From an uncultured Chloroflexia bacterium (GTDB lineage Bacteria; Chloroflexota; Anaerolineae; Anaerolineales; Anaerolineaceae), in assembly GCA_963704755.1 (NCBI GenBank), contig OY969938.1:4110001-4142000 (forward strand): a stretch of DNA of 32,000 nucleotides, written 5' to 3'. A program made the position numbers and the translations under genes. Below are positions 3,471-28,894 of the stretch, piece by piece. The notes below the pieces were generated by a model that worked only from the letters and a program-made list of their open reading frames with translations, was not told where the DNA came from and did not search any database. The first letter of the stretch is position 1. The number at the start of each line of letters is the position of its first letter.

Positions 3471-3797
3471 AAAGCAATACAAGAAAGACGTTGACGAGGA
3501 CGAGTACGCACCATCAGGACGGTACAGAGAGCAGGAACCGGTGAGAACCTGCCCGAACAGTGATGCGGAATGGACCTCTGAGTCGCAGGGTGAACACTTT
3601 GTAAGTAACCCGAGCCGGAGTTGCCACCGTTATCAAGGTAAAGGGTATCGTCAAGGTTGATTTGACCGTACTCGAAAAGAGTGAGGCTGGCTTTTTCCCC
3701 TGTGTGCATCACCAGGGGATTTTTTTATAACAGCGGCCTAACCGGGGTGGCACCACGGACCTGAGTTCGTCCCCAAGGACTCAGGTCTTTTTGTTTT
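3471..3797 (+). promoter_or_regulatory. T-box riboswitch leader, tryptophan specifier (UGG)
   Basis: Stem I elements run in canonical order: GA motif tgacgagga, AG bulge cagagagc, distal loop ggtgagaa. The specifier loop is gcggaa-TGG-a, with UGG at 3571-3573 followed by the conserved purine. An F-box-like ccgtta and Stem III (3697-3718) follow. The T-box sequence is aaccggggtggcaccacgg (3739-3757). Its UGGC bulge complements a G73-CCA acceptor end, as expected for bacterial tRNA-Trp. The terminator is ggacctgagt (3756-3765) / actcaggtc (3778-3786) + tttttgtttt. Confidence 0.9.
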
Positions 3798-3814: not shown

Positions 3815-4864
3815 ATGAACCAACCTAACAAGCGTATTTTGGCAGGGCATCGCCCAACCGGACCGCGCCATATCGGCCACCTGGTGGGGACATTGACCAA
3901 TTGGGCCAGGCTGCAGGACGAATACGAATGCTTTTTCCTGGTAGCCGACCTGCACGTGTTGACCACCGACTTCGAGCACCCCGAAGTGGTGCGCCAGAAC
4001 TCGCTCGAAGTTGTGGCCGACTGGCTGGCGGCCGGGATCGATCCGCAGCGCAGTACCCTGGTGCTGCAATCGGCGGTGGCCGAACACAGCCAACTGGCCG
4101 TTCTGTTGAGCATGCTGGTGAGCGAATCGCGCCTGCGCCGGGTGCCCACTTATAAGGAGCAGGTCAACCAGCTCAATTTGCAGCCCTCCTTGGGCCTGTT
4201 GACGTACCCGGTGCTGCAGGCAGCCGACATTTTACTCTACAAAGCCAGCGGTGTGCCGGTCGGCGAAGACCAGCTTCCGCATATCGAGCTTTCCCGTGAA
4301 ATTGCCCGCCGGTTCAACCAGCTCTACGGAGCGACCTTCCCTGAGCCGGAAGCGCTGCTGTCCAAAATGCCGCGCCTGCCGGGCACCGATAACCGCACCA
4401 TGCATTTTTCGTACGGCAACACCATTTTGTTGAAAGATACTCCCGAGGAGACCACCCGCAAGGTGATGGAAATGTACACCGACCCGACCCGCATCCACGC
4501 GGATGACCCCGGTCATGTAGAAAATAACCCGGTCTTCACTTACCTGGAACAATTCGACTCGGATTCCGAGCAAGTCGAGGAATTCAAATCGCGTTACCTG
4601 GCCGGCAAAATCGGTGATGTGGAAATCAAAAAGGTACTGGCCCGCAGCATCAACACTGCCCTGGAACCCATCCGCCAACGGCGGGCGAAGCTAATCAACC
4701 AGCCGGCCTACCTGCGCGATGTGCTTTACCTGGGCAGCCTAAAAGCGCGCCAGATTGCACACGAGACCCTGGACGAAACCCTTACCAAAATGGGGCTGAC
4801 CCTGGGCCTGGCGTTGCAGCCAGAAAATGCGAACCTGGATTACCCCAAAGGCGCATTCTGCTAA
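3815..4864 (+). CDS. trpS: Tryptophan--tRNA ligase (class I aaRS), with a divergent KMSKS position
   Basis: GGAGG RBS at 3804-3808. HIGH motif is PRHIGHLVG. GLLTYPVLQAADILLY and VPVGEDQLPHIELSREIARRFN are TrpRS signatures. A Trp-specific T-box lies upstream. The KMSKS position reads TMHFS (4397-4411). Confidence 0.9.
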   Translation: MNQPNKRILAGHRPTGPRHIGHLVGTLTNWARLQDEYECFFLVADLHVLTTDFEHPEVVRQNSLEVVADWLAAGIDPQRSTLVLQSAVAEHSQLAVLLSMLVSESRLRRVPTYKEQVNQLNLQPSLGLLTYPVLQAADILLYKASGVPVGEDQLPHIELSREIARRFNQLYGATFPEPEALLSKMPRLPGTDNRTMHFSYGNTILLKDTPEETTRKVMEMYTDPTRIHADDPGHVENNPVFTYLEQFDSDSEQVEEFKSRYLAGKIGDVEIKKVLARSINTALEPIRQRRAKLINQPAYLRDVLYLGSLKARQIAHETLDETLTKMGLTLGLALQPENANLDYPKGAFC

Positions 4865-6516: not shown

Positions 6517-7215
6517 GCCCCTGGCTTTCAAAACTCGGTTTCGGGCTGGCGTTGAAGGGCGGCCTCGGCCGACGGAACGGAGGTGAGACCGGGCCGAACA
6601 ATACGTCTTACTTCTAAATTTTGCCAGTTTGCCTTCTATTAAGAAGAACTTAACGCCTTCCCCCTTTATGGGGGAAGGTTGGGATGGGGGCTAACGCCGG
6701 TCAACCAGGGCTTCATTGGGTTATCGAGGACAGGCCAATCTCCGGCGTAGGTAGTGTGCCTCTACAATAGATGGTTACTTGGCTACCCAAACCGGGTTCT
6801 AAAATTGGTGTTGAAGAGCGGCCTCGGCCGACGGAACGGAGGTGAGACCGGGCCGAACAATACGTCTTACTTCTAAATTTTGCCAGTTTGCCTTCTATTA
6901 AGAAGAACTTAACGCCTTCCCCCTTTATGGGGGAAGGTTGGGATGGGGGCTAACGCCGGCCAACCAGGGCTTTATTGGGTTATCGAGGACAGGCCAATCT
7001 CCGGCGTAGGTAGTGTGCCTCTACAATAGATGGTTACTTGGCTACCCAAACTGGATTCTAAAATTGGCGTTGAAGAGCGGCCTCGGTCTGGAGACCGGGC
7101 CGAACAATAAGTTTTAATTCTGCCGGGTATCGAGTTATCCGCTTTTAGGAGGGGCTTAACGCCTTCCCCCTTTATGGGGGAAGGTTGGGATGAGGGCTAA
7201 CGCCGGTCAACCAGG
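6517..7215. repeat. Tandem direct repeat, 259-nt unit, about 2.6 copies (family A)
   Basis: gttgaag(g/a)gcggcctcgg recurs at 6551, 6810 and 7069, a period of exactly 259. Units 1 and 2 are near-identical; unit 3 is truncated and remodelled. Each unit has the hairpin ccttccccc-tttat-gggggaagg plus a ttgggatggggg tail. The ORF track shows no ORF of 60 aa or more. Confidence 0.9.
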
Positions 7216-7501: not shown

Positions 7502-8200
7502 TCAAGATTGTAACTTCAATTTTAGTTCTTCGACCCGCGTGGCCAGTTTCCCCAGGCGGTAGCGGTGCCAGAGCAGGTCCAGGTAGCCCACGGTGAATAC
7601 GAACAGGCTGAACATGAACGTTTGCAGCATACGGGGGGTCATGTCGAAAGAGCCGGTCGCGGAGGGATCGCTGCCGCCGATGACCACCGGGTGGATGGTG
7701 CGGAACAGGCGGATCGAGAAGAAAGTCAATGGAACGCTGATGAACCCGATGATAGCGTAAACTGCCCCAAAGCGGGCGCGCCGTTCGGGCTCCTCGATGC
7801 CGGCGCGCAGCATCATGTAGGCAAAGTAGATCAACTCCATAATGGTGACCGTGGTCAGGCGCGGGTCCCAGGTCCACCAGGTGTTCCAGATCGGGCGTGC
7901 CCAAATCGAGCCGGTGATAATCGTAATCAACGTGAAAGCAATCCCAATTTCAACAGCGGCAACAGCGACCAGGTCCAGGATCATTTTCTTGTTGATCAGG
8001 TAAAACACGCCCACCACAGCGGCTACCCCAAAACTGAGCATTCCAATCCAGGCCGAGGAAACGTGGAAATAGAACACCTTCTGGACGAGGCCCATCACGG
8101 CCTCGACCGGCGCGTAGAAAAAAACCATCGCTGCGGCGGCCAGCAGAAGGAGGACACTCAACACGTCCAGGTAAGTTAATAATCTAGGCTTTTGCTCCAT
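7502..8200 (-). CDS. ccmC: Heme exporter / heme-handling protein CcmC
   Basis: WWD motif WARPIWNTWWTWDPRLT and a multi-TM profile. I chose the ATG at 8200 (GGAGG plus 8-nt spacer) over the TTG at 8215 used by the track. Confidence 0.9.
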   Translation of the reverse strand: MEQKPRLLTYLDVLSVLLLLAAAAMVFFYAPVEAVMGLVQKVFYFHVSSAWIGMLSFGVAAVVGVFYLINKKMILDLVAVAAVEIGIAFTLITIITGSIWARPIWNTWWTWDPRLTTVTIMELIYFAYMMLRAGIEEPERRARFGAVYAIIGFISVPLTFFSIRLFRTIHPVVIGGSDPSATGSFDMTPRMLQTFMFSLFVFTVGYLDLLWHRYRLGKLATRVEELKLKLQS

Positions 8201-21422: not shown

Positions 21423-23900
21423 TCAACTGTTCGGCGGTTCTTCGTCATCATCGTCATACCAACGGCCGGGGTTGGGCGGGGTTGCGGGATGGGAGGGCAG
21501 CAGGGGGAACTTCAACAAACCTTTGCGGTAGAGCAGCAACCCGGCTACCCCCAGGGCAATTATTTCGACGCCGAACAAACCCAGCAAATAGAGCCGGTAG
21601 CGGGCCAAATTGGATGGCGGGGATTGGGTCTGGCCTCCGGCTGGGGGAACTTCAGTCGCGGCTGAAGCGGTCACACCCGGCGCGTTGGGGGTCGCACTCG
21701 CCGCGACCGGGTAACCGTTTTCATCCAGTACGGTAGATGAGGTGCCACTTTGGACCGGGTAACCCGTTCCCGAAACAGGCGTCCGGCTGGCGGTCAGCTC
21801 GGCGGGCGATGGCGTGGCGGTTCGAGTCTCTGTGCCGGAAGATGTGCTGCCGGCCGGGTAAGCGCTGCTCAGGCTGGAAGAAGTATTGTTGCCGGCCGGA
21901 TAAGCGCTACTCAGACTGGATTGGGTGCCCGAATAAGTGGTGGTGATGGTAGGCGTGCGGGAGGGAAAGCTGGTGCGGGTGTGGGTGGGCGTGGGTGAGC
22001 GGTAAATGATCGCTGTGGCCGTACGGGTACGCGTCTTGGTGCGGGTAAGGGTGATCGTCCGCGTGGGTGTGATGGTACGGGTCAGTGTGATGGTGCGGGT
22101 AATGGTGGGGGTATTCGCCGCGGTTGGCTGTTGCGGCAGCAGCCCGACCACGAAGGGGGTAAAGAACAGGTCGTTGGAGAAATCAGGACGCCCTTCATTG
22201 TCGATGCTGACCCGGATCTCCTTGGCGGTGGTATCACAACTCGTCGCCTGGCCGGTGTGGCCGGTCGTCAACCAGGCAGGCGAATCGCTGGCCGGGTCGA
22301 GCCACCAGAGCGGGAACGCAGCCGGGTCCGGGCTGGCGCAGTAGCTGGTCGATGCAATAGCGCTGGTACAGGCAGAGGTGATCTGGTCGTAGCGGAAGGA
22401 CAGATCCAGGCTGCCCGGAGCCGGGTCATCCGCCTGAGTGAACACGTCATAATAGTTGGAACAGGCAGTCAGGTTTTCCGGCGATCCGCCGGTGAAGGGA
22501 ACGTTGCCCGGGCTGCCGTTGCCGTGATTGAGGATGTACAGGCCATAGTCGCCCTGCCCGTCGGCGTGTTGGAAGGACACCAGCCCGCCGAATGCGCTGG
22601 ACCTGCTGGCCGTGACGCTGACCAACTGGCCCTGGACGCCGGGAGCACCGTTGTTAGTCAGGATCGGCGCACCCAGGCGTTTGGCGGCTGCGACCGTGCA
22701 GCCTTGGACGGCGCTGTCGGTCGGGACGCCCGCTCCCCAGAAGTTGTGATCCACCTGGCCGCCGGCATCGCCGCACTGGACCTGGACCCCATTTTGGTTG
22801 GCGTACAGGTTATTGGCGACAGCCGTAACCGTCCCGGTCGTGTTTTCGGCCAGCAGGGCATAGCCGGCGTTGCTGGTGATATTATCGAAGCTCAGGCTGA
22901 CGTTGGCGGTATCGTCGGCCAGGATGTGAACCGCGTCGCCCCCGCCGGTCAGGCTGGCGGATTGGATGGCGACAGGTGCGCTGCTATTGATCTCGACCAG
23001 GTCGCGATCGGTGCTGCCGCCGCAATTGCCGTCGTCGATGGACAGGTTTTGCAGGGTGATGCCGGCGTTGAGCGCGAGCATGGGGTTGTCGCAGCCCTGG
23101 CCGGCATAAGTGATGCGGGCGTTGTTCAACCCTTGCAGCGTCAGGGGCTGGTCCAGTACCACGGTGTTGCTCTTGATCTGGTAGCTGCCCAGGATGTTGA
23201 TGACGGCCGAGTCCTGACCGGCCAGGGCATCGGCTGCGTCCTTCAGCCCGGTGCCGTAGCCGCCGTTGGCGTCACTGCCGGAGTTGACGTAGCAGGGGGA
23301 ATAAGAGCTGCAATTGTTTGCGTCACTCGCCACATAAACAGAAGGCTGGATTGGAATAACCGTTATGGTGGTGGAAGCCTGGATTGGGTTTGACCATTCC
23401 TGACTGCTGTCGGTACGTTGATACGCCCAGGCGCCGACCGCTTTGGTAATGCTGGCGGTATTCCCGATGCGGAAGTTGTAATCGATCGAATCGCTGAAAG
23501 GTGAACCCGGAATTGTGGCAGATGCTGCACCAATCAGCGTGTACCCGTCAGCGGCACCACATTGAGATTGCCCATCACTTTCGGAAAGTTGGGTAATTCC
23601 GGAAATGGTTGAGGAAATCAATTCGAAACTGGAGGTACCCCATTCATTGGGTGCATAAAAACAAGCCAGAAAGTCTGGTTGATCGGCAACTGTATCGAAT
23701 TGAAAACGCATACTTACCGTTTGACCGGCGACACACCCGGTCGAGGGGCAAGCGGAAGGGTTTAGAAGCGTTAATGCGGTCGTTTCAACCGATTGGGCCG
23801 CCGAGGAGCGAATCCCAAATACGGACAGGGCCAGAATCACCAGCAGGGCCAGCCTGGCAGATATGTGCGTAAATATAGAATGTTGTGTGGATTTAGACAC
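21423..23900 (-). CDS. Secreted, C-terminally membrane-anchored protein with right-handed parallel beta-helix repeats
   Basis: Signal peptide (RLALLVILALSVFGIRSSAAQS). Central Gly/Asn/Asp-rich repeats are typical of pectin-lyase-fold beta-helices (NITSNAGYALLAENTTG, ANNLYANQNGVQVQCGD). A Thr-Arg periodic linker and Ser/Thr-rich AYPAG repeats follow. A C-terminal TM (LYLLGLFGVEIIALGVAGLLLY) and an acidic tail close the protein. Start is a GTG at 23900 with a weak RBS. Confidence 0.7.
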   Translation of the reverse strand: MSKSTQHSIFTHISARLALLVILALSVFGIRSSAAQSVETTALTLLNPSACPSTGCVAGQTVSMRFQFDTVADQPDFLACFYAPNEWGTSSFELISSTISGITQLSESDGQSQCGAADGYTLIGAASATIPGSPFSDSIDYNFRIGNTASITKAVGAWAYQRTDSSQEWSNPIQASTTITVIPIQPSVYVASDANNCSSYSPCYVNSGSDANGGYGTGLKDAADALAGQDSAVINILGSYQIKSNTVVLDQPLTLQGLNNARITYAGQGCDNPMLALNAGITLQNLSIDDGNCGGSTDRDLVEINSSAPVAIQSASLTGGGDAVHILADDTANVSLSFDNITSNAGYALLAENTTGTVTAVANNLYANQNGVQVQCGDAGGQVDHNFWGAGVPTDSAVQGCTVAAAKRLGAPILTNNGAPGVQGQLVSVTASRSSAFGGLVSFQHADGQGDYGLYILNHGNGSPGNVPFTGGSPENLTACSNYYDVFTQADDPAPGSLDLSFRYDQITSACTSAIASTSYCASPDPAAFPLWWLDPASDSPAWLTTGHTGQATSCDTTAKEIRVSIDNEGRPDFSNDLFFTPFVVGLLPQQPTAANTPTITRTITLTRTITPTRTITLTRTKTRTRTATAIIYRSPTPTHTRTSFPSRTPTITTTYSGTQSSLSSAYPAGNNTSSSLSSAYPAGSTSSGTETRTATPSPAELTASRTPVSGTGYPVQSGTSSTVLDENGYPVAASATPNAPGVTASAATEVPPAGGQTQSPPSNLARYRLYLLGLFGVEIIALGVAGLLLYRKGLLKFPLLPSHPATPPNPGRWYDDDDEEPPNS

Positions 23901-23989
23901 GGGATTTTCCCGGTAAGAGCAAAATGGTTTGGCTTCCCCACGTGCAGGGCGGGGCGATTTCCCCGGTTGCTTTGATTATACCTGAGAAA

Positions 23990-24875
23990 CGAGTTGCGAT
24001 TTATCACTTCGTAGGGCATCCGTAGGGTGGGTGGAGGGCTCCTTGAGGTTGCAGTGGAATCACCGGGTGTTTGATATCCTGAATTCGTGCCCGCAACCCA
24101 CCATTCGATCAAGTTTCTACTTGTCGGGATGGTTGGTTGCGGGCAGCTTGTAGGTTGGGTTGCGGGCTCAAGCAGAATGCCGGCGATTTGTTGGATTGTG
24201 TAACATCCCAGGCTCTGCCCGTAACCCAACATTGTGCCTGGGTATTGCCTGTGTTCGGGTGCGGGCAGGGTCTGGGTGGGTTATATGTTTTGCCTAAAAA
24301 CCAATGTTGCGATAGAGCCCGCAACCCAACCTACGAAAGGTCCGAGCTAAAAGCTCATGGCTAACGGCTAACAGCTTCTTTCCTACCGGTGGGTTACGGG
24401 CAAGGCCCGGATCACGACGCCATCCGGTGAATCGCCGGTAGTATATTCGAGCCCTGCACCCACCCACCATATATTGCGAGCTAAAAGATAACGGCTCATC
24501 ACCTGCCGGTGGGTGCAGGGCAAGGCCTGGATGGGGATACCAACCGGTGAATCGCCGGCAGTATATTCGAGCCCTGCACCCACCCACCATATATTACGAG
24601 CTAAAAGCTAATGGCTAACGGCTATTCACCTGCCGGTGGGTTACGGGCAAGGCCTGGATCACCACGCCATCCGGTGAATAGCCGGCAGTATATTCGAGCC
24701 CTGCACCCACCCACCATATATTGCGAGCTAAAAGCTAACGGCTCATCGTCTTCCGGTGGGTTACGGGCGAGGCCTGGATGGGGATACCAACCGGTGATCC
24801 GCCGGTGTTATTTTCGAGCCCTGCACCCACCCTACATTTACGCGAGCTAAAAGCTAAAAGCTAATCGCTAACGGC
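23990..24875. repeat. Array of alternating inverted 14-mers; 120/127-nt monomers forming an about 245-nt higher-order tandem unit (family B)
   Basis: ggtgggt(tac/gca)gggc occurs at 24388, 24508, 24635 and 24755. gccctgcacccacc occurs at 24451, 24571, 24698 and 24818. Loop variants alternate a-b-a-b. Diverged relatives lie in both orientations at 24089-24330. Confidence 0.9.
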
Positions 24876-24877
24876 TC

Positions 24878-25612
24878 TTAATGCAACACCTTGCTCAAAA
24901 AGGCCTTGGTGCGTTCCTGGCTGGGGTGGGAGAATAAAACTTCCGGCGTGGCTTCTTCGATAATTTGCCCGCCATCCATCAGGATGGCCCGGTGGGCGGT
25001 GGCACGGGCAAAGCCCATCTCGTGCGAGACGACCACCATGGTCATGCCTTCCTGAGCCAGGGCCAGCATCACGTCCAGCACTTCCTGGATCATTTCGGGA
25101 TCCAAGGCGCTGGTGGGCTCGTCGAACAGCATGATTTTGGGGTTCATTGCCAGGGCGCGGGCGATAGCCACACGCTGCTGCTGTCCGCCGGAGAGTTGAG
25201 CGGGGAAGGCATCGGCTTTATCGGGAATGCCTACCTTGGCGAGCAATTCTCGTCCGATCTTGACCGACTCGTCTTTGGAGCGTTTGCGCACGATGCGTTG
25301 GGCCAGCAGGACATTGTTCAGCACACTCAGGTGCGGGAACAAGTTGAACTGTTGGAAAACCATGCCGACTTCGGTACGCACGGCGTTGATGTTCTCGGCG
25401 CTGTCGAGGGGAATGCCGTCCACGATGATCTTGCCCGCGTCGAATTCCTCCAGGCGGTTGATGCAGCGCAACAGGGTCGATTTTCCCGAGCCGGACGGCC
25501 CGATAATCACCACCACTTCGCCTTTGCTCACGTCCAGGCTGACCCCTTGCAGGGCGTGTACATCCCCAAAGTGCTTGTGGATATTTTCAATATGGATGAT
25601 CGGTTCGGCCAT
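24878..25612 (-). CDS. Polar amino-acid ABC transporter ATP-binding protein
   Basis: Walker [10 protein letters not shown], signature [15 protein letters not shown], Walker [12 protein letters not shown]. GlnQ/HisP-like length and sequence. Confidence 0.9.
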
Positions 25613-26766: not shown

Positions 26767-27690
26767 CTATTGGTTCGCCGCCAGCCATTTTTGCTGCAAA
26801 GCGTCGATCGTGCCGTCGTCTTTGAGTTCTTTCAAGGCCGCATTGATCGGATCTACCAGGTCGGAACGGTTGTTGCAAATGGCAATGCCGTACAATTCGT
26901 TGGTGAAAGGTTGGCCGGCCGCGACCATTTTCTCGGGGTTCTTGTCGACAAAACCCATGGCGGTGGGGTAATCGGCGATGACCGCGTCCACCTGCCCATT
27001 GGCCAGGTCGAGGAAGGCCAGGTCAACGGTGTCGTAGGGTTTGTAATTAACGTTGGGGATCTTCTTGGCTTCGATCTCACCGGTGGTGCCCAATTGGGCC
27101 GCTACCGTCTTGCCCGCCAGGTCATCTACCGAATTGATGCCTGAGCCGGGAGTGGTGATCACGATCTGTCCGGCGCTCATGTAGGGGTCGGAGAAGAGCA
27201 TTTTTTGTTTGCGCTCGTCGGTGATGGTGATGGCGGAAATGCCGGCGTCGAACTGGCAGGCGGCCAGGCCGGTTTCGAGCGAATCGAAGATGATGTTCGT
27301 CCACTCTATCGTAAAGCCTTCTTTTGCGGCGATGTCGTTCATCAGGTCGATGTCGAAGCCGATCAGGTCTTTGCTGGTTTCATCCACCATCTCGAAGGGC
27401 GGCCAGGTGGCGTCGGTGCCGACCCGGACAGTGGTGCCGGCCAGGGATGAAGCGCCGGCCGGGTAAGCGCTACCCGCCGGGGCTGCGCTGGTAGCGGCGG
27501 CTTCACTCGTTGTGGGTGCTTCAGTGGCAGCCGGGTAGGCGTTGCTTGCCGGCGCTGTGGTCGATGTGCTTTCAGCAGGGTATCCGGTGCTGGGACCGGA
27601 GGCCGTAGGCGTTGCTGCGGGCGCACAGGCGGCCAGCACCAGCGTCAGCAGCGTAAATACAGATACAAGAATGAGTGTCAGGCGTTTCAC
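26767..27690 (-). CDS. Amino-acid ABC transporter substrate-binding lipoprotein (SBP family 3) with a long Ala/Thr/Ser/AYP linker
   Basis: The mature domain has VGTDATWPPFE, GFDIDLMNDIA and DAVIADYP motifs. I start at the GTG at 27690 (GGAGGA plus 5-nt spacer), giving MKRLTLILVSVFTLLTLVLAAC with lipobox LAAC. The track extension to 27870 lacks support. Confidence 0.85.
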   Translation of the reverse strand: MKRLTLILVSVFTLLTLVLAACAPAATPTASGPSTGYPAESTSTTAPASNAYPAATEAPTTSEAAATSAAPAGSAYPAGASSLAGTTVRVGTDATWPPFEMVDETSKDLIGFDIDLMNDIAAKEGFTIEWTNIIFDSLETGLAACQFDAGISAITITDERKQKMLFSDPYMSAGQIVITTPGSGINSVDDLAGKTVAAQLGTTGEIEAKKIPNVNYKPYDTVDLAFLDLANGQVDAVIADYPTAMGFVDKNPEKMVAAGQPFTNELYGIAICNNRSDLVDPINAALKELKDDGTIDALQQKWLAANQ

Positions 27691-28079
27691 GAGTTTCCTC
27701 CAAAAAGGCTTGTAGAACTGGATTTCATTTGTGATATCAATGGGAAAACCAGGCTCGGGACTTTTAGATCCGGTTTTCAAGATTATACCATTTAAAGAAT
27801 CGGGCCGGTTTACCGATTCGGGTGGGGGTGATGACGTTGGGTTGTGTTGATGTTTATCAAGATCTAGCAACTTAAAGAATCCCCAGCTTCATTAAACAAG
27901 GCGAGAATCGGCGACCGAGGTCGCGGCAACAAATACGCGAAGCCGCCGGCGAGCAGGTTTGGAATGGGAGGAGGTATTAGCTCCAGCCGTTTCCCCCGTT
28001 ACGCCAGGTGACGGAAAAATGGTGTATGGTAACCGGGTAGGCGCAAATTCCCAGCTTCGAAAGCCGGGCTACTACGAGG

Positions 28080-28894
28080 GAGCCCCACGAAAGTGGGGCT
28101 TGGTGTACCTGTAGCAGTGACCTCGGTCGCCAACGCGCAGACCCACCCGGGCACCCGGAACCAGGGAGCCCATCCTGGCCGGCGCAAAGAATCCCCCCTT
28201 GGCCCCCTTTGCTGAGGCTGTGAAGAATCTCCTGGCCTGCTTTAGCAGCTATGGGCGTTCGGGCTCCCAAGAATTTGTCGCGTATCCTGAAATCTTCACA
28301 GCCTCCAAGGGGGGAAAGTCCTGGGTTGCACAAGGTGCAGGCAATATTCAATTAGGTGCAACCCGAATTGAGCCCCACGAAGGTGGGGCTTTGTGTACCT
28401 GGTGCAGCGACTTCAATCGCCAACGCGCAGGCCTACCCGGGCACCCGGAACCAGGGAGCCCATTCTGGCCGGCGCAAAAATCCCCCCTGGTCCCCCCTTG
28501 CTGAGGCTGTGAAGAATCTCCTGGCCTGCTTTAGTCGCTATGGGGGTTCGGGCTCAAAAAATCTGTCGCGTATCCTGAAATCTTCACAGCCTCCAAGGGG
28601 GGAAAGTCCTGGGTTGCACAAGGTGCAGGCAATATTCAATTAGGTGCAACCCGAATTGAGTCCCACGAAGGTGGGGTTTTGTGTACCTGGTGCAGTGACC
28701 TCGGTCGCCAACGCGCAGATCCACCCGGGCACCCGGAACCAGTGAGCCCATTCTGGCCGGCGCAAAGAATCCCCCCTGGTCCCCCCTTGCTGAGGCTGTG
28801 AAGAATCTCCTGGCCTGCTTTGGTAGCTATGGGGGTTCGGGCTCAAAAGAATCTGTCGTATATCCTGAAATCTTCACAGCCTCCAAGGGGGGAA
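28080..28894. repeat. Tandem direct repeat, 288-290-nt unit, about 2.8 copies (family C), with nested inverted repeats
   Basis: gag(c/t)cccacgaa starts at 28080, 28370 and 28658. Each unit has the hairpin agccccac-gaag-gtggggct and the long-range helix gaggctgtgaaga / tcttcacagcctc (e.g. 28504-28516 / 28581-28593) extended by C-run/G-run pairing. Each unit also has the stem gggttgcac / gtgcaaccc. Indels between copies break every ORF. Confidence 0.9.

Follow-up and report, generated by a model that had tools for sequence, protein, structure and literature searches.

The 977-bp non-coding gap between an ATP-binding cassette (ABC) transporter ATPase gene and an 825-aa open reading frame (ORF), at positions 23901–24877 of a 32-kb stretch of Anaerolineaceae contig OY969938.1 (this whole stretch is called the window below), contains an array of inverted 14-mers that is very probably a cluster of repetitive extragenic palindromes (REPs). 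We read it as resembling the bacterial interspersed mosaic elements (BIMEs), and as derived from a system of REPs and REP-associated tyrosine transposases (RAYTs) that is widespread in the Anaerolineae (Chloroflexota). The array hairpins belong to a family of GTAG-tagged palindromes which, in related genomes, flanks RAYT genes and forms tandem clusters, and the array itself is lineage-specific, being lacking at orthologous loci.

A GTAG-tagged hairpin family in Anaerolineae

The family is recognised by the signature GTAG-G(T/G)TGGGT-NNN-GGGC, loop, GCCC-NNN-ACCCA(A/C)C. Using a relaxed pattern (TGGGT-N3-GGGC, 35–65 nt, GCCC-N3-ACCCAMC), we found 13 hairpins in 12 Chloroflexi-type loci, which come from Longilinea, Bellilinea, Ornatilinea apprima and Anaerolineaceae metagenome-assembled genomes (MAGs). 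Position 2 of the stem is paired (T-A or G-C) in all 13, and GTAG or CTAC stands at exactly one end of 11 of them, as opposed to 3 of the 48 matches in other phyla. From hairpin to hairpin the arms hardly differ (GTTGGGTTTCGGGC and GCCCTCAACCCAAC), and the loops are unrelated.

A search of metagenome contigs with the single 18-mer arm GCCCTCAACCCAACCTAC, for which no partner was required, matched at least 120 contigs. Among the matches listed, a partner arm lies within 80 nt in 93 of 131 arm instances, almost always as the TTC variant GTTGGGTTTCGGGC, giving a TC/TC bubble. Loop lengths of these hairpins cluster at 0–12, 31–37 and 48–51 nt; most fall into the two longer classes, and a short-loop form of 35 nt, with loops of 0–12 nt, accounts for about 21 of the 93. 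When 47 arm-selected hairpins were aligned, the left arm, which the search had left unconstrained, showed no variation over its outer seven bases, and about 90% of the hairpins had the TC/TC mismatch. At the level of the family, 115 of 135 hairpins lie outside long ORFs, several hairpin loci occur per MAG or genome, and orientation relative to genes is mixed (22 versus 13 in co-directional contexts), which fits a DNA element and not an RNA signal. Complete elements are inverted doublets with their tags outward (GTAG, arm A, loop, arm B', linker, arm B, loop, arm A', CTAC). Tandem higher-order arrays, in which REPs alternate with inverted REPs (iREPs), are present in O. apprima (locus L041, 233 nt × 2.0) and at loci L233 (172 nt × 2.5) and L231 (271 nt × 2.1).

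The array in the window was recovered by a profile hidden Markov model (HMM) built from 106 family hairpins, none of them from the window, with matches at 24150–24232 (E = 2.2e-7), 24022–24105 (E = 1.1e-5), 24755–24835 (E = 9.8e-5) and 24291–24334 (E = 1.4e-3). Over the 32 kb, the model matched only within 24022–24835, on strands that agree with the GTAG/CTAC tags, and in a search space of 64 kb, matches at E = 2e-7 are unlikely to be due to chance. The match to a REP/BIME class of this lineage, which had been named beforehand as speaking against the original prediction made from these letters, was therefore found, and the array is an ordinary kind of element.

Palindromic elements of about 86–89 nt were also observed in large number in the Synechococcales MAG GFS_9157 (L011, L012, L016, L022, L032, L048, L051, L056, L078, L079, L084, L088). 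Their outer arms, GTTGGGTTTGGGGC/GCCCCAAACCCAAC, are one base from the Anaerolineae REP arm, and their interior holds two inward-facing GTAG-tagged palindromes (GTAGGGGCATGGC).

Family hairpins flank RAYT genes

In four independent contigs, a homologous ORF of about 180 aa lies between outward-facing tagged arms that are separated by 600–730 nt. Its protein matches Pfam Y1_Tnp and the NCBIfam equivalog model NF047646, 'REP-associated tyrosine transposase', with 194 bits (E = 1.1e-57; cut-off 80 bits), and reaches 29.6 bits with the IS200 model, under the cut-off of 55 bits. A RAYT gene is present in ten contigs that were selected by one arm only, and tagged family hairpins directly adjoin it every time; contigs that show both sides have the layout GTAG-hairpin, RAYT, hairpin-CTAC. 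Similarly, RAYT loci selected by protein (L231, L232 and L233) carry family REPs on both sides, with multi-REP clusters at L231 and L233, the latter being an Anaerolineaceae MAG whose arms have the central triplet TAC, as in the window. No RAYT gene turned up in the other loci fetched, of which about 0.6 Mb came from other phyla. A check for RAYT/TnpA(REP)-type transposases, proposed along with the original prediction, was thus positive at family level, in ten arm-selected contigs and three protein-selected loci. The RAYT contigs of the family are mostly about 1 kb long, and such breaks of many of them are expected of genes bracketed by repeats. Anaerolineae and cyanobacterial RAYTs are 54–58% identical (56–57% for Limnoraphis and Capilliphycus).

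An eleventh arm-selected contig (L100, 54–721) encodes a divergent Y1 protein of 185 aa (PGYDY...MPNHVHGII...WQRNYHEH) after a GTAG-tagged family hairpin, and the association of these REPs may extend beyond a single Y1 lineage. A lead from an IS200-type probe, the 136-aa Y1 transposase of L127 (named 'RayT' by JGI), was rejected, its homologues being flanked by a different repeat of about 100 nt. They make up a second, very abundant Y1 family (L127 2300–2986, L215 3740–4700, L218 760–1640, L221 3740–4620; 136–137 aa, Pfam Y1_Tnp) that is 75–95% identical across hundreds of metagenome contigs and has some members called 'RayT' by JGI. On either side of these genes stands a multi-hairpin repeat peculiar to this second family, about 100 nt long (...GGGATAAATCCC...GAAGCCCTGCGGGC...GTCGGCTTCAGCCGAC...) and unrelated to the GTAG hairpins.

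Anatomy of the array

The gap holds seven hairpins (Table 1), six of which are intact, each with a 14-nt stem and a 49-nt loop. The 14-mer GCCCTGCACCCACC is found exactly at 24451, 24571, 24698 and 24818, its exact complement at 24508 and a TTAC variant at 24388, 24635 and 24755, bearing out the alternating inverted arms of the original prediction; degenerate copies lie at 24026, 24089, 24154, 24217 and 24317. A hairpin pattern (arm, 35–65 nt, arm) gave 12 matches, six hairpins each being counted once per strand; 100 shuffles gave 0. Tandem Repeats Finder reported the array at 24382–24857 with period 120 (3.9 copies, 81% matches) and the same array at period 247 (2.0 copies, 87% matches).

The tandem young units u1–u4 measure 120, 127, 120 and 123 nt from arm to arm, so the predicted monomers of 120, 127 and 120 nt are confirmed, with a fourth added, and the 127-nt unit breaks the frame, in line with the absence of codon periodicity that had been noted. 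As also predicted, two loop motifs alternate along the units (a-type in u1 and u3, b-type in u2 and u4). The proposed a-b dimer holds for the loop types and for u1/u3 (93% identical) but only in part for whole units, since u2/u4, at 79%, are no more alike than adjacent units (81–84%); among themselves u1–u3 are 81–93% identical, and to u4 75–79%. The spacer motif was found to recur (CGAGCTAAAAG, five occurrences against 0 expected). Unit lengths differ by 7 nt through one additional GCTAAYG heptamer in a linker microsatellite: the linkers (24465–24507, 24585–24634, 24712–24754 and 24836–24877) carry the heptamers GCTAAAA, GCTAACG, GCTAATG and GCTAATC, 2–4 copies each, which shows slippage on top of REP amplification. 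The last linker, of 42 nt and with four heptamers, abuts the ABC ATPase stop codon.

Older relatives had been predicted upstream of the young units, and these are present at 24022–24334, including the arm pair 24154–24167/24217–24230 with one G-T. This part is composed of a REP, an orphan arm and a REP-iREP doublet, and u1–u4 are four iREPs in the same orientation. The tags are GTAG at 24022 and 24150 and CTAC at 24331 and 24832; u1–u3 have CACC instead. At its outer ends, the 20-mer 24816–24835 is 95% complementary to 24022–24041 (inverted repeat I4). An inverted repeat of 27 nt, 81% complementary and with 4 nt between its halves (I2), joins the first REP to the orphan arm, which is likely the remnant of an inverted partner. 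The doublet reads GTAG, arm 24154–24167, 49-nt loop, arm 24217–24230, 21-nt linker, degenerate arm at about 24252–24267, second 49-nt loop, arm 24317–24330, CTAC.

Table 1 Features of the array and its flanking genes in the window
Feature	Positions	Strand	Description
825-aa gene (secreted or surface protein)	21423–23900	minus	ORF; downstream of array
-10-like box GGTATAAT of 825-aa gene (candidate promoter)	23975–23982	minus	75 nt upstream of GTG start, outside repeat array
REP 'H-3'	24022–24102	plus	GTAG head 24022–24025, left arm GGTGGGTGGAGGGC, 49-nt loop, right arm GCCCGCAACCCACC
Palindromic linker and orphan inverted arm GGTTGGTTGCGGGC (24131–24144, slightly degenerate)	24103–24145		Mirrors H-3 right arm
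Complete REP-iREP doublet (REPIN-like, tags outward)	24150–24334		Outer 20-mers 100% complementary (inverted repeat I3)
Linker with CGAGCTAAAAG and GCTAANN heptamers	24335–24387		Homologous to young-unit linkers (direct-repeat family D2)
Young unit u1, a-type loop	24388–24507	minus	iREP hairpin 24388–24464, TAC/TGC bubble, 49-nt loop, tag CACC, 43-nt linker
Young unit u2, b-type loop	24508–24634	minus	Hairpin 24508–24584, perfect 14-bp stem (I6), 50-nt linker, one extra heptamer
Young unit u3, a-type loop	24635–24754	minus	Hairpin 24635–24711, 43-nt linker
Edge unit u4, b-type loop	24755–24877	minus	Hairpin 24755–24831, intact CTAC 24832–24835
ABC transporter ATPase gene	24878–25612	minus	Pfam ABC_tran 1.6e-39; synteny with L001–L003

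Stem pairing in the window and in the family

In the six intact window hairpins, 10 of the 14 stem pairs are invariant and the central three stem positions are unpaired in 11 of 18 cells. One stem pair is altered on both sides once, from G-C to T-A in hairpin 24154–24230, and within-window covariation is not above chance in comparison with column shuffles (covariation score, 76/500; percentage of cells paired, 164/500). The notion that stems stay complementary while their sequence changes is hence not confirmed within the window. Three of the four young hairpins have a 3-nt central mismatch, TAC opposite TGC, and because of this the either-register folding that had been proposed for every neighbouring pair is perfect only for arm 24508. 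The two registers are not interchangeable: the GTAG/CTAC tag, together with isolated copies elsewhere, fixes the register as left arm, loop, right arm, CTAC. Folded as DNA, the bubble-bearing young hairpins do no better than shuffles (z = −0.8, −0.7), whereas u2 (z = −3.6, −3.0) and the doublet region/hairpin 24150–24234 (z = −3.4, −3.6) do; the whole array folds better than shuffles on both strands (z = −3.2 and −4.8).

About 87% of 165 distinct tagged hairpins of the family have mismatches at stem positions 9 and 10; the pair at position 2 is T-A or G-C, and that at position 14 is C-G or G-C. Position 12 may be G-C, C-G, A-T or T-A in the family, and is 88% Watson–Crick in the 76 hairpins without the search arm. 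The stem is accordingly laid out as 8 bp, a 2-nt mismatch bubble and 4 bp, and window copies are unpaired over up to 3 nt. Judged from the alignments, the family appears to be a conserved bubble flanked by truly covarying stem segments. The suggestion that pairing itself is maintained thereby gains support for the flanking segments at family level (positions 2, 12 and 14), but the central triplet that had been cited for it overlaps the mismatch bubble.

The array lies upstream of a conserved promoter-like box

The ABC ATPase gene is the final gene of an operon for a solute-binding protein (SBP), a permease and the ATPase, which lies upstream of the array. On the other side, the translation of the 825-aa ORF has a signal-like N-terminus, T-rich repeats and a C-terminal transmembrane segment. 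A Pfam search with this protein gave no match; it has 55 homologues besides the query, at 35–53% identity, and all taxon-named ones are from Anaerolineae (Longilinea arvoryzae, and proteins named Anaerolineaceae, Bellilinea and Thermanaerothrix). The gap was correctly predicted to be non-coding: its five ORFs have no Pfam match at E < 0.1, and since, in addition, the 127-nt unit disrupts the reading frame, a coding array was rejected.

Three orthologous loci (L001, L002 and L003) keep the order UvrC, SBP, permease, ATPase, surface protein. Their spacers between the ATPase and surface-protein genes are 571, 157 and 134 bp long and contain none of these arms. A (G/T)GTATAAT box is located 48–75 nt upstream of the surface-protein gene in all four loci (48–72 nt in L001–L003), reading TGTATAAT in L001 and GGTATAAT in L002 and L003, as in the window. 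A consensus promoter scan did not call the window box, and consensus promoter and terminator scans of the array returned nothing above shuffle expectation. From its sequence and position, we infer that the box is a candidate promoter of the 825-aa gene; the original prediction had placed this promoter in the region, where the candidate indeed lies, though outside the array. Because the orthologous spacers lack the arms and the box is conserved, the array would have arisen by insertion or expansion on the upstream side of the likely promoter, and would not be a conserved leader. It appears to have been inserted, and then amplified locally, upstream of the conserved TATAAT box.

Other repeats were observed at these spacers and elsewhere in the window. 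In L001, the closest relative, the 571-bp orthologous spacer holds, at 7560–7870, nested long perfect palindromes, for example GGGTGTTTTTGATGTTTTTT...AAAAAACATCAAAAACACCC, and a second palindrome flanked by GACAATGTCAC inverted repeats, that is, a different palindromic element at the same site. Between uvrC and the SBP gene, the window has a tandem array at 28080–28894 (period 288, 2.8 copies, 92% matches), and L001 has a different one at the same intergenic position (3880–4630; period 135, 5.6 copies); in this lineage, long-period arrays seem to build up at the same spacers. A further intergenic array of the window, at 6547–7086 (to about 7215), has period 259, 2.1 copies, 97% matches and a partial third copy, its units consisting of a CTTCCCCCTTTATGGGGGAAG hairpin and then GTTGGGATGGGGGC, with one arm-like 14-mer. 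On reading, neither window array has evident similarity to the REP family, beyond that one 14-mer in the array at 6547–7086.

In the operon, the SBP ORF at 26767–27870 spans 367 aa from a TTG start, compared with 248–279 aa in three orthologues, and its Pfam SBP_bac_3 match begins at residue 148, which points to an N-terminal extension or an over-extended ORF call. Distant from the array, a T-box leader at 3482–3777 (Rfam RF00230, 106 bits, E = 8e-23), upstream of an ORF at 3815–4864, fits a Chloroflexota host.

Comparison with known REP-RAYT systems

In E. coli, the RAYT (TnpA-REP), an HUH/Y1 enzyme, recognises and cuts REP hairpins formed on single-stranded DNA; it binds the imperfect hairpin with its GTAG tag, and in vitro it both cleaves BIMEs and joins them again (PMC3333891; PMC3479197). 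The Anaerolineae element shares with E. coli REP/BIME-2 (Ton-Hoang 2012, PMC3333891; Messing 2012, PMC3479197) a GTAG located 5' of the hairpin foot, an imperfect palindrome, two mismatched stem bases (PMC3333891), the combination of REP and iREP with linkers, tandem clusters in which same-locus copies are alike, and an extragenic location. As in the E. coli REPtron, a Y1/HUH transposase gene is flanked by the repeats. By analogy, the Anaerolineae RAYT may recognise and cut its hairpins on single-stranded DNA, and the analogy with TnpA-REP likewise suggests RAYT-mediated insertion on single-stranded DNA. Unlike in E. coli, where the whole element measures 30–40 nt, the Anaerolineae arm alone is 14 nt and loops are mostly 31–37 or 48–51 nt; the window hairpins, at 77–81 nt with 49-nt loops, fall outside the REP/BIME size of 20–40 nt with a short loop. 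Also unlike in E. coli, arms are nearly identical across several genera, and the young array of the window runs head-to-tail in one orientation, where classic BIME-2 alternates REP and iREP.

Tags-outward inverted doublets (24150–24334, L015 and L150) are similarly known from the Pseudomonas REPIN-RAYT system (REPINs being REP doublets forming hairpins; Bertels and Rainey 2011, PMC3116915; Bertels 2017, PMC5581495), in which the RAYT is, as here, flanked by the most abundant local repeat; the phylum and the REP sequence differ. With the GTAG-tagged REP superfamily (Di Nocera 2013, PMC3733652), the element has in common the tag, the occurrence as singles, dimers and grouped elements, and the association with a transposase gene. 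That survey describes 24 families with stems of 5–13 bp and loops of 2–20 bp, dimers that are head-to-head, tail-to-tail or head-to-tail, and, as Chloroflexi hosts, only Chloroflexus aggregans and Thermomicrobium roseum (PMC3733652). Judging from its text and supplements, the Anaerolineae family is not among the 24 (PMC3733652). The subterminal hairpins of IS200/IS605 insertion sequences (ISs) are imperfect as well, and a Y1 HUH enzyme recognises them on single-stranded DNA, as would hold for Anaerolineae by analogy. However, IS ends are direct and travel with the transposase gene, whereas the Anaerolineae hairpins are dispersed without the gene, and the Anaerolineae protein scores with the RAYT model, at 194 bits, and not above the IS200 cut-off. 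The element therefore has the main defining features of REP/BIME-RAYT systems (tag, imperfect palindrome, inverted doublets, RAYT flanked by repeats and, in related genomes, alternating tandem clusters) and departs from them in size, in its near-identical arms across genera, in its head-to-tail young units and in host range.

Weighing the alternatives

Several observations weigh against the assignment of the array to a REP-RAYT system. The 32-kb window contains no RAYT gene, so that the RAYT link is made at family level in other contigs, and the hairpin pattern has no match in the 32 kb outside the array, leaving a single cluster visible. With the profile HMM, u3 reached only E = 0.21, and u1 and u2 gave no match at E up to 10; in these three units the tag has decayed to CACC and the arms have extra differences. 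The young array is made of head-to-tail copies in one orientation (four iREPs), and u1–u3 amplification may owe nothing to RAYT. Loops of 49 nt here, and of 31–37 or 48–51 nt in the family, are far above the 2–20 nt of GTAG REPs (PMC3733652). Finally, an arm-plus-linker pattern (GCCCNNNACCCANC N9-14 CGAGCTAAAAG) occurred 0 times in 185,579 representative genomes and 0 times in the metagenome contigs scanned, and the window's subfamily with its linker thus seems private to the source genome.

We consider it possible, though unlikely, that the cluster has been exapted, its RNA hairpins stabilising 3' ends, serving as attenuators or insulating the operon and the surface-protein gene from each other; such a role would add to the REP identity and not replace it. 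The array begins right after the ABC ATPase stop, where no canonical minus-strand terminator was seen and where the Longilinea orthologue has a hairpin with a T-run at the corresponding place, and the better-than-shuffle folding of both array strands would also suit this role, as would effects on mRNA stability and termination reported for REPs elsewhere in bacteria (PMC3733652). Against it stand the lack of the array at orthologous loci, the occurrence of family members in both orientations relative to genes, and the shuffle-level folding of the bubble hairpins as DNA. It is considerably less probable that the array is a structured non-coding RNA in tandem, or a cis-regulatory leader of the 825-aa gene kept by compensatory evolution, towards which the original prediction leaned. 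The long stems, the covariation at stem positions 2, 12 and 14 of the family and the G-T pair in hairpin 24154–24230 speak for it, yet that pair would read as a C-A mismatch on the transcribed (minus) strand, covariation in the window is at shuffle level, loops are unconserved, and orthologues lack the array. Moreover, the conserved TATAAT box between array and gene puts the likely promoter downstream of the array, family members have mixed orientations relative to genes, and at gathering score Rfam found in the window only the T-box leader, with nothing but miRNA-type chance matches in the array region at E up to 10 and no match in ten related loci.

A plain minisatellite, arising when a chance palindrome with no link to a mobile element underwent replication slippage or unequal crossing-over, is hardly more probable than a structured RNA. 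Head-to-tail tandem units of 75–93% identity, the linker heptamers and the further long-period intergenic arrays of this genome (6547–7086 and 28080–28894) are what it would lead one to expect, and slippage probably accounts for the amplification step, but for that step only. As a full explanation it is already contradicted by family membership: arms, tag and bubble match a family of many genera that flanks RAYT genes, and a complete doublet with perfect 20-nt tagged ends is nested at 24150–24334. Least probable of all, to the point of being negligible, are miniature inverted-repeat transposable elements (MITEs) of a conventional inverted-repeat IS, or integron attC sites forming a cassette array without integrase. 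Tagged inverted ends of 18–20 nt and loops as variable as in attC recall such elements, and the arm cores GTTGGGT/ACCCAAC fit the attC consensus letters GTTRRRY/RYYYAAC. An attC site, however, carries 5'-R'' (RYYYAAC) ... R' (GTTRRRY)-3' at the hairpin foot, with cassettes between sites and an IntI integrase nearby or elsewhere. Here the order on either strand is 5'-GTTRRRY ... RYYYAAC-3', the reverse of attC, and this reversed box order (GTTGGGT ... ACCCAAC, both strands) led us to reject an attC/integron identity; in the other register, the boxes adjoin the loop and not the hairpin foot. Furthermore, the units lack cassette ORFs, a scan of seven window ORFs showed no integrase among them, and the sole recurrent gene between tagged ends is the Y1/HUH RAYT, with no DDE transposase or integrase. 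An array of clustered regularly interspaced short palindromic repeats (CRISPR), which has direct repeats of 24–48 nt and unique spacers of similar length, was rejected too, as the 14-mers are inverted and the entire 120-nt unit is repeated, 'spacers' included.

Proposed history and significance

As a REP-RAYT derivative, the array could have the following history. REP/iREP copies would have inserted into a short spacer (about 135–160 bp) between terminator and promoter, beginning with the outer REP/iREP pair, whose 20-nt ends lie at 24022 and 24835, and continuing with the nested doublet at 24150–24334. Tandem amplification of one iREP plus linker would then have produced four or five copies, either by RAYT (models in PMC3333891) or by ordinary unequal recombination, and afterwards heptamers would have slipped in the linkers and the u1–u3 tags decayed from CTAC to CACC. 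Most likely, the cluster does not serve the neighbouring genes in any dedicated role; its effect would be, at most, to supply 3' hairpins for the ABC operon transcript and to place the operon at a greater distance from the surface-protein promoter.

We give only a small chance, somewhat below that of exaptation, to the idea that these elements form a distinct REP class in which loop length is constrained and loop sequence free, with 14-nt arms and RAYT conserved across genera and resembling a cyanobacterial system. If true, conservation of loop length without that of sequence could reflect a loop that serves a RAYT dimer or a host protein as a structural spacer of measured length; alternatively, loops could acquire foreign or templated sequence. 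The similarity to cyanobacteria, across phyla, could then indicate an ancient or transferred REP-RAYT partnership that benefits its host.

The conspicuous 1-kb non-coding array is thus accounted for as an element of a kind already known. To that kind it adds a new example, from an Anaerolineae REP-RAYT family for which no published description was found in the literature searched on REPs in Anaerolineae. A REP-RAYT system is thereby defined for this class, with the simple signature GTAG-G(T/G)TGGGT-N3-GGGC, loop, GCCC-N3-ACCCA(A/C)C. Such clusters break short-read assemblies, enlarge intergenic regions and can pass for regulatory RNAs, and the long, length-constrained loops together with the conservation of arms across genera offer a point of comparison for REP-RAYT biology outside Proteobacteria.

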